From: an uncultured Omnitrophica bacterium
GTDB lineage: Bacteria > Omnitrophota > Gorgyraeia > JACQQV01
Assembly: GCA_947085655.1 (NCBI GenBank)
Contig: CAMTXH010000009.1
Coordinates: 3,738 to 67,737 of the forward strand
Reading direction: 5' to 3'
Length of the DNA stretch: 64,000 nucleotides
Under the pieces are notes generated by a model that worked only from the letters and a program-made list of their open reading frames with translations, had not been told where the DNA came from and searched no databases. This document shows positions 1,304 through 61,903 of this stretch, one piece after another (position 1 is the first letter of the stretch; each line of letters opens with the position of its first letter). The position numbers and the translations under genes are program-made.

Positions 1304-4144
1304 ATGCGGATTTTCTCGGGAAAAGCCGGGCCGCCCCAACGGGCGCCTGGCTTTTTCTTTCTTGCTTGTTTTCTCCTCAATGCGCTACAGGTTGAGCCGG
1401 TCTGGGCACTTCGCCCCACTTCCTCCGCTTCCCAGGACGGTTCCCGAAGAGCGATCCAAACGGCCCTTCAAGAAAATTCCCTCTCCGCCATTGACTCGTT
1501 TCCTGCAGAGGAGCGCACTTTTTTAGAAACCCTTCAAAGACACCTCGCCACGCGTCCCATCGTTTCACCCATTCCCGGAGAAGAGGAGGCATCCATCAAA
1601 GCCGGATCAGCAATCCTTCTCCGTTTTTACAACGGAGGATGGCAGCTGTTTCTTGTCAAGCGGAAGGCCGAAGCGCGCCGTTATCCAGGGTTTTGGGTTT
1701 TTCCGACGGAGATAAGAGAGCAAAACGGCCCCGGCGCTCAAGAGAAACCTTTGGAAGCGATCCTTCGGGGACTCCAGGAGGAGCTTCATCTTGAATTGAC
1801 ACCGGCTCATGTCATAGGGCGGATCGGAAAATATTTAACCGCTGATAAAAAGGGGGTTGTTTCCCCCATCCTTTTTCTGGTTTCCGAGGAGGAATCTCGA
1901 GAAATAAAGGTGGATCCTTCGGAAAACGAAATGGGCCAATGGGCACCGGTCTCTTTATTTTTAAACGGAAAGGTTCGTCAGGAAAATTTCCTTCCCGAAG
2001 CGGAGTTTGGTTCATCCGCAAGATTCGGTCCGGTAAGTGCTGCGGTCGATTTTTCGAATGTCTTTCGAGAGGCGGGAAAGGAGGCGCTTCAGCCCCGCCT
2101 CGAATCGGTCGGCCGGGAACTTTTTGGACATCTGCGGAGGGATGCTTTTTTGCAAAAAATCAATCACCCGCAAGATGCCTGGCGTGATGCCTTCGTGCAG
2201 GTTGGCATGAAAGAGGGTTTAAGGGATGGCACGCTCGGTTTCCTGGCAGAATATCCGGCCCTTCGGACCCCGGAGCGGCTTGAGGAAGCGCTCGAACGAC
2301 ATTTTCCGAAAAATGAACTTCCCAAGGGATTCGCTTCTGCCTTATGGTTTTTGGGACATATCCCTTCCAGAGCAAGACTCGGCCTTACAGATATACCAGT
2401 CCAGTTTGTTGGACGCCGTTTCATTGCCGGTGAAACCTCTGAAAAAATCCTTCCCCGGCTGAAACGGCTTCGACGTCAGGGTGTCACTTTCACGCTCGAC
2501 CCTGTGGGAGAGGCGGTCAGGGATGAGGCGGATGCCAAAGAAAACTTTGCTGCGAACCTCCTCCTCTTTGATGCGCTGGATCAGGCGACAAAAAACTGGC
2601 GGTGGGATGATTTTAAGGATATTCCTTACATGTCCCATGTGTCCATCAAATTGAGTTCATTGATTCCCACGTTTGACCGGGAGCATAAGGAGGAGTTGAA
2701 ACGCCGCCTCCGACGGCTGATGCGATTTGCGAGGACAAAAGGCATTTTCATTCGTATTGATATGGAGGAATATCAGGTCAAGGATCTGACCCTTGACATT
2801 TTTACGGAACTTCTCGATGAAGAAGAATTTCTCCGCTACGAGGGACTCGGGATTGTGGTGCAGGCGTATCTCAAGGATTCTCCGAAGGATGCGACCTCGC
2901 TCATCGAATTTGCGAGGCGGCGGAAGGAAAGGGGAGGATGGCGCACCCCGATTCGTCTTGTGAAGGGGGCCTATCCGGATCAGGATAGACTTCACCGGTG
3001 GGATGAAAAGTGGGAAACCGATGAACATTACGAGACGCTTTCCCATCTTCTTCTCGAAAACGTCGATGCCATTCTTCCCGCCTTTGGGACCCATAATATC
3101 CGATCCATCTCGGCTGTTTTGGCCTACGCCCGTTTTCTGGGGGTGCCGAAGGAGGCCTTTGAGTTTCAGTTTCTTTACGGAATGGGGGAACCGATCCAGC
3201 ATGCTTTGGTGCGCGCCGGTTACCGCGTCCGTCTCTATACTCCTTTTGGGCACCTCGAAAGGGCGATCCCTTATCTGGTCCGGCGGTTGATCGAGAACAG
3301 TTCCCAAATTTCGTTTGTCCGCCAGACCCAAAGCGCCGAATACGGTTTGGATACCCTGCTCCTTCCACCGCGGGAATTTGCGGAGATTGTCCAAAGCAAC
3401 TCCCGAGACGGCGCGGAGCGGTTTGGAAGGACCGAGCAACATCTGGGCGTTGTGGTAACGCTCACAGACCCGGAGGTGGAATTCGTCCGTACGTTTATTC
3501 TGATCGTGATGGCGCTTTTGGAGCATCTGGAGGAAATGGACCTGACCCATCTTCTCGATAACCCCCAAGCCCTTCCGGCAGGCGTCCATTTCAAATCCTT
3601 GCGGGAAATTGAACTGGTGGGCCCTTCAGACGGATATCTGGAGAATGCCCTCACGGGACTGCTTAAGTCTGCGGAGAAAATCGGGATTCATGGGGCGCGC
3701 ATCCGGGAGACAGAAAAGCAAACAAGGTATCGGCTCCTTCCGAACCCGACCCTTCATCAGGTATTGGAGGGGGCAACGACAGGACGTCTTCCGGAGGGAA
3801 CGGTCGCGGTATCTTATGGGCGGTTACGACCGCCTGTCCGGAGTCAAATAGACAAGATTGCCGATGCTCTTTTTGAGAACTATGAACCATCCCTTGCGCG
3901 GCATCAAGGAGCGCTTTGGCACCCTCTGGTCACACGGGAAATCCTGGCGGAGGTTTCCCGCAGAAATATCGAGAAAACAAAAGGCGCCCGGCTTTTGGAG
4001 GCCTTTCTGGGCATCGACTATCCGGTTGCGGACGCGTATGTCCAAAGCGTTCCGGATGCGCATGCCAGAGACGGCGCCGCCAAGGCCCAGCCCTTTTTTA
4101 GACAAATCCCTTCCCATGCCCTAGAGCCGACGCTCTACCCTTAA
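1304..4144 (+). CDS. NUDIX hydrolase / proline dehydrogenase (PRODH) fusion protein with an uncharacterised ~250-aa C-terminal region
   Basis: Nudix box near aa 100-190 (GFWVFPTE...EKPLEAILRGLQEELHLEL fits GX5EX7REUXEEXGU); PutA-type PRODH motifs at aa ~380-700 (RLVKGAY, LYGMGE, YLVRRLIENSSQ); no P5C-dehydrogenase domain follows. Confidence 0.7.
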   Translation: MRIFSGKAGPPQRAPGFFFLACFLLNALQVEPVWALRPTSSASQDGSRRAIQTALQENSLSAIDSFPAEERTFLETLQRHLATRPIVSPIPGEEEASIKAGSAILLRFYNGGWQLFLVKRKAEARRYPGFWVFPTEIREQNGPGAQEKPLEAILRGLQEELHLELTPAHVIGRIGKYLTADKKGVVSPILFLVSEEESREIKVDPSENEMGQWAPVSLFLNGKVRQENFLPEAEFGSSARFGPVSAAVDFSNVFREAGKEALQPRLESVGRELFGHLRRDAFLQKINHPQDAWRDAFVQVGMKEGLRDGTLGFLAEYPALRTPERLEEALERHFPKNELPKGFASALWFLGHIPSRARLGLTDIPVQFVGRRFIAGETSEKILPRLKRLRRQGVTFTLDPVGEAVRDEADAKENFAANLLLFDALDQATKNWRWDDFKDIPYMSHVSIKLSSLIPTFDREHKEELKRRLRRLMRFARTKGIFIRIDMEEYQVKDLTLDIFTELLDEEEFLRYEGLGIVVQAYLKDSPKDATSLIEFARRRKERGGWRTPIRLVKGAYPDQDRLHRWDEKWETDEHYETLSHLLLENVDAILPAFGTHNIRSISAVLAYARFLGVPKEAFEFQFLYGMGEPIQHALVRAGYRVRLYTPFGHLERAIPYLVRRLIENSSQISFVRQTQSAEYGLDTLLLPPREFAEIVQSNSRDGAERFGRTEQHLGVVVTLTDPEVEFVRTFILIVMALLEHLEEMDLTHLLDNPQALPAGVHFKSLREIELVGPSDGYLENALTGLLKSAEKIGIHGARIRETEKQTRYRLLPNPTLHQVLEGATTGRLPEGTVAVSYGRLRPPVRSQIDKIADALFENYEPSLARHQGALWHPLVTREILAEVSRRNIEKTKGARLLEAFLGIDYPVADAYVQSVPDAHARDGAAKAQPFFRQIPSHALEPTLYP

Positions 4145-61112: not shown

Positions 61113-61690
61113 GAACTCTCCTGCGTCAAATAGGTGACAATTTGAACGGCGCCCGTTAGAAGATTGTCCCCATCCAAATCCTCTCCGGTATCGAGGACGC
61201 CGTCTCGGTCCGCATCTTCCCCGAAAAGCCGTCCCCTCTCCAGCCATGAGACATCGATCCGGACACCCACCGCCGCGGCATTCGAAGTGTCAAATGTAAT
61301 CACACCCATTCCGGTCAGCCCGGTGGGGGTGAAGGTGTTTCCCTGAACGCCTCCCGCTCCATAATCAAGGGTTAGGGTTGCATAGTTACTCTCCCGCATC
61401 TCTTCCAGTTTGGCCTGGGCGCTCTGGAGCGCCAGAGTATGCCCAAGACTGTACTGGCTCAAGACAAGGGAGTTGTGATAGACCAAAAGGGCTCCCAAGA
61501 TGGAGATCAACAGGATCCCCGATGCGATGACAAATTCAAGAAGGGTAAAACCGCGCTCTCCCTTTCTGGTTAGATCCTTTTTTGGACCCATAAATTTGAC
61601 CCAATAAAAAAACTGTTTTACCAGACTGCCTGGTAAAACAGTTTTTCTGATTTCGGCGGTCTGGCGACCCTGTCTTTTACCAGGGTCCAT
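61109..61690 (-). CDS. prepilin-type protein (pilin/pseudopilin-like), first gene of operon; start ambiguous (61690 with SD, or 61591)
   Basis: Class-III motif KGERG|FTLLEFVIASGILL. ATG 61690 has SD (GGGGA) but gives a 47-aa leader; ATG 61591 gives a 14-aa leader but no SD and sits 15 nt after a terminator-like hairpin. Confidence 0.55.
   Translation of the reverse strand: MDPGKRQGRQTAEIRKTVLPGSLVKQFFYWVKFMGPKKDLTRKGERGFTLLEFVIASGILLISILGALLVYHNSLVLSQYSLGHTLALQSAQAKLEEMRESNYATLTLDYGAGGVQGNTFTPTGLTGMGVITFDTSNAAAVGVRIDVSWLERGRLFGEDADRDGVLDTGEDLDGDNLLTGAVQIVTYLTQESS
61608..61646 (-). promoter_or_regulatory. terminator-like 17-bp hairpin + U-tract in the leader / 5' coding region of the pilin operon (putative attenuator)
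   Basis: On minus-strand RNA: AAAACUGUUUUACCAG gcagu CUGGUAAAACAGUUUU then UUAUU; upstream CCUGGUAAAAGACAGG (61666-61687) can pair with the 5' arm. Confidence 0.5.
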
Positions 61691-61903
61691 GACTTTGCGT
61701 CCCCGGATTACTCCGGGTTTGCCCCCCTCGAAAACTCTTCGAAGGGCCCTATTTAGGGTTTATCGAATCCACACTTAAAGTATACCATAGAAAGGGGAGA
61801 CCTGTCTGAATTCTTTAATTTATAATTAGTTGAAAATAAAAGAGTTATGAAAAATATCATTTTTTCCCTGACCCACCGGGAAATCGGTTAAAATAGAAGG
61901 GAC

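Follow-up and report, generated by a model that had tools for sequence, protein, structure and literature searches.

The leader at 61769-61603 on the minus strand of the window (the whole 64-kb stretch of DNA analysed here) is most likely a transcriptional c-di-GMP-I riboswitch that acts as an OFF switch of the minor-pilin/DUF4900 operon. It is predicted from its sequence to be a complete c-di-GMP class I (GEMM-I) riboswitch, an aptamer that directly abuts a conserved intrinsic terminator, with a third, covarying helix that is incompatible with both. This finding puts a minor-pilin/DUF4900 operon of uncultured, partly host-dependent Omnitrophota under predicted c-di-GMP control and corrects the deposited start of the pilin gene, as the 193-aa call begins within the riboswitch. 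A well-known riboswitch class is joined here to a standard type of expression platform, making it an ordinary element in an unusual host, and no new regulatory principle is revealed by it. Its unusual points are the host phylum, the terminator loop that serves as an antiterminator strand, and double hairpins beside ligand-contacting nucleotides. No description of riboswitches in Omnitrophota was found in the literature searched.

The aptamer, its class and its inserted hairpins

The best Rfam match of the leader is RF03167, with 62.3 bits against a cut-off of 59 (E = 5.8e-14), and this match to the full model delimits a c-di-GMP-I (GEMM-I) aptamer core at 61732-61651 on the minus strand. A second family of the same clan (c-di-GMP-I clan CL00126) also passes its own cut-off and is hidden by clan competition. 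The riboswitch alone accounts for the Rfam matches in the 64-kb window. In the Rfam alignment, P1a lies at 61722-61697 (CCCGGA-GUAA-UCCGGG, minus strand), capped by a GUAA tetraloop of the GNRA type, and P1b at 61693-61659 (minus strand), the latter also outlined by pair counts. These counts come from an alignment of eight leaders, namely those of the window, L082, L083, L084, L092, L086, L087, and L093, all of which have the specific terminator of the window; within the aligned region, one base separates L084 from L092, and a further locus, L088, is identical to L087. P1b is 97% paired across the eight leaders with three compensated pairs, and the C22-G45 pair of P1a has become U-A in many relatives. 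Thus, the leader combines a score above the curated gathering threshold with covarying P1a and P1b hairpins, as expected of a c-di-GMP-I member.

In Vc2 of Vibrio cholerae, the nucleotides contacting c-di-GMP are G20, A47, and C92 (PMC4744006), and the CAAAG core corresponds to C46-A47-A48-A49-G50 (PMC7288161). Mapped through the Rfam alignment, the contact positions fall at 61723, 61696, and 61656 on the minus strand, where the window has G, A, and C, respectively, and we infer from sequence that the aptamer binds c-di-GMP. Vc2 (RF01051) shares with the leader the three-helix junction, the GNRA tetraloop on P1a, the GGCAAAC...GACGCAAAG core, and G20/A47/C92, and it likewise sits in the 5' leader ahead of a surface- or motility-type operon. 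The Omnitrophota element differs from it in its host, in two hairpins of junction J1/2 beside G20, and in scoring highest to the sister model RF03167.

That top model is the c-di-GMP-I-GGC family, which, together with a double hairpin of about 36 nt inserted directly 5' of G20 and a further insertion between G45 and C46 in relatives, could be taken to mean that the aptamer is a specificity variant (GGC, cGAMP-type GEMM-Ib, or a new class made by the inserts) that uses the same terminator logic for another ligand. We consider this very unlikely. The name of the "GGC" variant of Weinberg et al. 2017 (PNAS) reportedly refers to the A47-equivalent position. There, the RF03167 consensus has G (GACGCGAAG), but the window reads GACGCAAAG with A, the one core mismatch to that consensus, and A is also present in all relatives inspected. 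Position 61723 is G and not the A of cGAMP-type aptamers, in which G20A confers cGAMP binding (PMC7288161). Moreover, relatives match RF01051 at 37-76 bits (cut-off 35), and their best model alternates between RF01051 and RF03167; the RF03167 label therefore reflects competition between models. Sisters that have no insertion at G20 (L083 and L086) also have the same expression platform. With A at the A47-equivalent, G at the G20-equivalent, and models that alternate among relatives, the aptamer is thus read as a canonical c-di-GMP-type aptamer, neither GGC nor cGAMP-type.

Relatives and folding extend the canonical c-di-GMP-type aptamer beyond the Rfam core to 61769-61649 (minus strand) through a revised P1. 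The 5' strand of this helix, GAUUCG at 61769-61764 on the minus strand, pairs with CGAAAUC at 61655-61649, while the local Rfam alignment had taken as P1 a look-alike UUCGA inside one of the inserted hairpins (hairpin B). The revised P1 puts the aptamer state 2-3 kcal/mol above the unconstrained minimum free energy (MFE), compared to about 15 kcal/mol with the Rfam P1. Covariation of P1 is visible by eye (AUU-CG/CG-A-AAU in the window, ACU-CG/CG-A-AGU in L082, and GAAU-CG/CG-A-AUUC in L093), and an automated duplex test weakly supports the revised pairing. An "anti-P1" hairpin, read from the 15 kcal/mol penalty, was dropped since the relatives show an insertion with the true P1 strand upstream of it.

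The insertion in the window consists of hairpin A (CCCUAAAUAGGG, 61758-61747) and hairpin B (CCCUUCGAAGAGUUUUCGAGGGG, 61746-61724), both on the minus strand in J1/2 directly 5' of the G20-equivalent. L082, L084/L092, L087, and L093 carry inserts of unrelated sequence at the same point, directly 5' of G20, and L083 and L086 have no J1/2 hairpins (...CCGAAAA|GGCAAACC). Each J1/2 insert, folded alone, forms two adjacent hairpins. A second double-hairpin insertion is found between G45 and C46 in L082, L084/L092, L086, and L093. With a double hairpin immediately 5' of G20, binding of the ligand may be changed. It is also conceivable, if rather unlikely, that the inserts mark out a structurally separate GEMM-I subclass, built around a 5- to 7-way junction, that has changed affinity or specificity or takes a second input from a protein or RNA; if that were true, the hairpins would not be neutral decorations.

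The inserts occur at three points of the aptamer within the clade, always as GC-closed pairs of adjacent hairpins of 36-62 nt with unrelated sequences. The P1b interior of four distant relatives (L037, L038, L046, and L074) also carries inserted hairpins. A mobile-repeat origin of the inserts was rejected, as no other copies were found.

The terminator and the conserved alternative helix

A reading of the sequence alone had pointed to a perfect stem followed by a U-run ahead of the ATG at 61591, and this hairpin is present. Folding and the eight leaders define an intrinsic terminator at 61648-61603 on the minus strand, composed of an A-tract, a 12-bp core stem with a 5-nt loop, and U7AUU. Its 5' arm is CUGUUUUACCAG (61641-61630), its loop GCAGU (61629-61625), its 3' arm CUGGUAAAACAG (61624-61613), and its U-tract UUUUUUUAUU (61612-61603), all on the minus strand. 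Pairing of the A-tract (61648-61642) into the U-tract extends the core to an uninterrupted stem of 19 bp (dG -23.9 kcal/mol), and the stem-loop with its immediate U-tract has the structure of an intrinsic (Rho-independent) terminator. A consensus terminator scan did not call the hairpin, presumably since part of the U-tract belongs to the stem, leaving too few T behind it. Among the eight leaders, the terminator stem is 93% paired with one compensated pair (AU to GC), and the 216-nt leader of the window folds far better than its shuffles (z = -5.7; none of 200 as good). The last nucleotide of the P1 3' strand (61649) is directly followed by the first of the terminator stem (61648), so that aptamer and terminator abut with zero overlap, and a bound aptamer is therefore compatible with the terminator.

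The antiterminator is another matter. The same reading had noticed an upstream copy of the terminator 3' arm within 61687-61666 and assigned it the antiterminator role. The copy exists (CCUGGUAAAAGACAGG, 61684-61669), and the 9 consecutive nucleotides it shares with the arm (CUGGUAAAA, 61684-61676) are rare, since at least 9 nt are shared with the aptamer in only 3 of 2,000 shuffles of the 3' half. The segment is, however, the apical part of P1b, and its pairing with the terminator 5' arm is never the MFE structure at any transcript length in the folding run, lying about 10 kcal/mol above the competing fold. In the eight leaders this pairing holds at 72%, a level that 98 of 500 shuffles attain as well, with its centre pairs broken in four to six leaders. 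Thus, the conservation check that had been proposed for the hairpin upholds the terminator, while the covariation falls on a different helix than the antiterminator first noted. The 9-nt repeat may simply arise because the terminator 3' half imitates the 5' strand of P1b, and an auxiliary role specific to the window is conceivable.

The covarying alternative helix pairs GCCAGACCGCC (61665-61655, minus strand) with GGCAGUCUGGU (61630-61620, minus strand). The former strand begins with the interhelical G83-equivalent (61665) and continues through the lower 3' strand of P1b and the C92-equivalent into the P1 3' strand by one nucleotide; the latter spans the entire terminator loop together with one base of the 5' arm before it and 5 nt of the 3' arm after it. 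Its 11 column pairs are 97.6% paired in the eight leaders, with three changed on both sides and one G.G mismatch in L083. The observed value is reached by 0 of 500 shuffles, and slid controls give 11-43%, although both controls are optimistic: the eight leaders are not independent of one another, they are the very sequences from which the helix was identified, and a 1-nt loop indel was bridged in the alignment with an N placeholder. At column pair 58/97, CG has become UA with G retained at the aptamer partner of column 58, a pattern suggesting that the alternative helix is itself under selection. This helix can coexist neither with the ligand-competent aptamer nor with the top of the terminator, and the element offers a clean, covariation-supported example of an expression platform whose terminator loop serves, unusually, as the antiterminator strand. 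A pseudoknot in which the lower terminator stem persists beside the alternative helix was rejected as sterically implausible, as a connecting loop of 0 nt would have to cross 11 bp.

In folds of growing transcripts, the alternative fold is the MFE structure at lengths of 148-160 nt, and at 156-160 nt without ligand, about the length exposed when the polymerase is on the U-tract, it represents nearly the whole ensemble (-66.6 versus -66.7 kcal/mol). The aptamer state then lies 5-8 kcal/mol higher, a gap that we judge, by our own estimate, to be within reach of the binding energy of c-di-GMP. From 164 nt on, aptamer plus terminator are favored over the alternative fold. Since the terminator is thermodynamically favored in the full-length transcript without ligand, antitermination must be kinetic.

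Direction of the switch

Because the conserved alternative helix excludes both the aptamer and the terminator, we regard it as likely that c-di-GMP turns the operon off. Without ligand, the aptamer 3' strand at 61665-61655 would pair with the terminator loop and the top of the 3' arm at 61630-61620, and a weaker pairing between GAAA of the P1 3' strand and UUUU of the 5' arm would also form. Both pairings would prevent the terminator from closing during the passage of RNA polymerase over the U-tract, and the pilin genes would be transcribed. The GAAR:UUUU pairs, on which this pre-sequestration of the 5' arm is based, are weak and non-covarying. With c-di-GMP bound, P1 and lower P1b would be locked and the alternative helix blocked, allowing the terminator hairpin to form and transcription to stop near 61606.

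The same riboswitch could instead be an ON switch, in which c-di-GMP prevents the terminator and induces the pilin operon. Type IV pili are commonly promoted, not repressed, by c-di-GMP elsewhere, and in Clostridioides difficile they are induced at high c-di-GMP through a class II riboswitch (Cdi-2-4) upstream of pilA1 that is ON with the ligand (PMC6366702). The equilibrium structure at full length without ligand is also the terminator, as an ON switch would have it. However, no aptamer strand stabilized by the ligand overlaps the terminator (61649 versus 61648), and the sole conserved competitor of the terminator needs the C92-equivalent and the lower P1b strand. These are nucleotides that the bound aptamer needs, and the competitor therefore forms only without ligand. 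An ON switch thus seems improbable.

The OFF direction has a counterpart in Cd1 (Cdi-1-3) of C. difficile, a class I riboswitch upstream of flgB in which c-di-GMP increases termination (PMC6366702). Both elements place a class I aptamer before an intrinsic terminator, with the OFF logic proposed here on sequence grounds. Cd1 is experimentally validated and controls flagellar genes, whereas the Omnitrophota element is predicted and precedes pilin-like genes, and it differs from Cd1 in that the 3' strand of its antiterminator is the terminator loop with the top of the 3' arm. Cdi-2-4, which also couples c-di-GMP sensing and a terminator to type IV pilin genes (PMC6366702), has an unrelated class II aptamer fold and the opposite direction. 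A motif scan of the long open reading frames (ORFs) of the window found no GGDEF or HD-GYP motif.

Gene start, operon and relatives in Omnitrophota

A consensus scan identifies a promoter-like site at 61808-61779 on the minus strand, with a -35 element CAGACA (61808-61803), an 18-nt spacer, and an extended -10 element UGGUAUACU (61787-61779). Transcription would start near 61772, a few nucleotides before P1. The extended -10 box TGGTATACT is conserved in related leaders, including that of L002, which lacks a riboswitch, and has the variant form GGGTATACT in L085. The leader lies between the divergent hflX gene and the operon, which encodes a prepilin-type protein of 160 aa (MGPKKDLTRKGERG|FTLLEF..., 61591-61109), a second prepilin-type protein with an N_methyl motif (61112-60570), and a DUF4900 protein of 590 aa (60570-58798), all on the minus strand, followed by two small ORFs. 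The first protein has the G|FTLxE signature of prepilins (...GERG|FTLLEF), passes the thresholds of Pfam PF07963 (24.7 bits versus 21.2) and TIGR02532 (17.3 versus 16.3), and is weakly PilV-like in NCBIfam. Among DUF4900 homologues, some have PF14341 as well, and JGI gives one the name PilX. The synteny of hflX with the divergent pilin1-pilin2-DUF4900 genes is kept in relatives.

A 609-aa ORF downstream of the operon (58267-56438, minus strand) has GNAT and NTP_transf_5 domains and a weak Peptidase_S24-like match below the cut-off. In close relatives, its place after the small ORFs is taken by two AAA_22 ATPase genes.

In the deposited annotation (GCA_964374045.1), the pilin starts at 61690, inside the aptamer, and is 193 aa long (61690-61109, minus strand). 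An exact look-up of the 160-aa protein gave no match, as the database version is the 193-aa call. The ATG at 61690 is present, in frame, and open to 61591, and the sequence-only reading proposed that a ribosome starting there melts the terminator by translating through it (translation-coupled attenuation) or produces a 47-aa prepilin leader, with the apical P1b segment as antiterminator. The deposited start, a G-rich stretch upstream of the ATG, and the rarity of the 9-nt identity (3 of 2,000 shuffles) are in line with such a model. However, the ATG belongs to the conserved YAUGG of the lower P1b stem, and the supposed Shine-Dalgarno (SD) sequence GGGGACGCAAAG with this ATG consists of nucleotides of the conserved aptamer core and the P1b stem. 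The frame is open to the pilin in only two of the eight leaders; in the other six, the equivalent AUG is out of frame or stopped within 7-32 codons. Relatives instead have an SD sequence (AAGGAGG, GGAGG) and short prepilin leaders of 4-13 aa (MKKG|FTLIEL) downstream of the terminator, and the pairing that the model needs is the one disfavored by about 10 kcal/mol, 72% paired and reached by 98 of 500 shuffles. With the ATG inside the aptamer core and the frame kept in two of eight leaders, neither translation-coupled attenuation nor a 47-aa leader is supported, and we give this model almost no credence.

What holds of the attenuator idea is a regulatory terminator in the 5' leader with mutually exclusive alternatives; the details differ, and the sensor is an aptamer rather than a translating ribosome. 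The leader-peptide attenuators of trp and his operons have the same terminator and antiterminator alternatives in the 5' leader, but no conserved leader ORF is translated through the terminator here, and sensing belongs to an aptamer that binds a ligand instead of to a ribosome. We prefer the start at 61591 to the deposited one at 61690, and the 193-aa call is best explained as a gene-caller artefact. A 77-aa ORF called across the riboswitch of L084 also looks like such an artefact.

Beyond the window, we surveyed 80 genome loci with DUF4900 homologues, most of them labelled Omnitrophota and a few carrying other metagenome-assembled genome (MAG) labels. In at least 22 of the 80, a GEMM-I-like aptamer lies 1.3-2.7 kb upstream on the same strand, and among close relatives a GEMM-I aptamer is found upstream in seven of nine loci. 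Two close relatives, L002 and L085, kept the promoter and are without the riboswitch. The L002 region (2800-2950, plus strand) has neither aptamer nor terminator. The L085 leader (1880-2016, plus strand) has no Rfam match and carries a 10-bp GC-rich hairpin with U5 just before SD and ATG (fold z = -3.8).

In the more distant riboswitches ahead of the same operon, a hairpin with a U-run follows 36-93 nt after the aptamer in 20 of 22 cases, the other 2 having failed the motif filter, and these terminators do not overlap with the aptamer. In most folds of truncated transcripts, the terminator 5' arm of these versions pairs back into aptamer helices. This arm, ACCUAUUCC, is conserved among them (L015, L018, L042, L048, L057, L058, L060, L069, L079, and others) and is by eye complementary to the 3' half of the tetraloop and the P1a 3' strand (AAGGAUGGG), a match suggesting that distant relatives may use another antiterminator strand while following the same logic.

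Further c-di-GMP-I aptamers (RF01051, 57 and 76 bits) are found on related contigs, at 6720-6803 of L082 and 8702-8786 of L093 (both plus strand), one of them just upstream of a 1305-aa Peptidase_C25 gene; the lineage therefore appears to use several c-di-GMP riboswitches.
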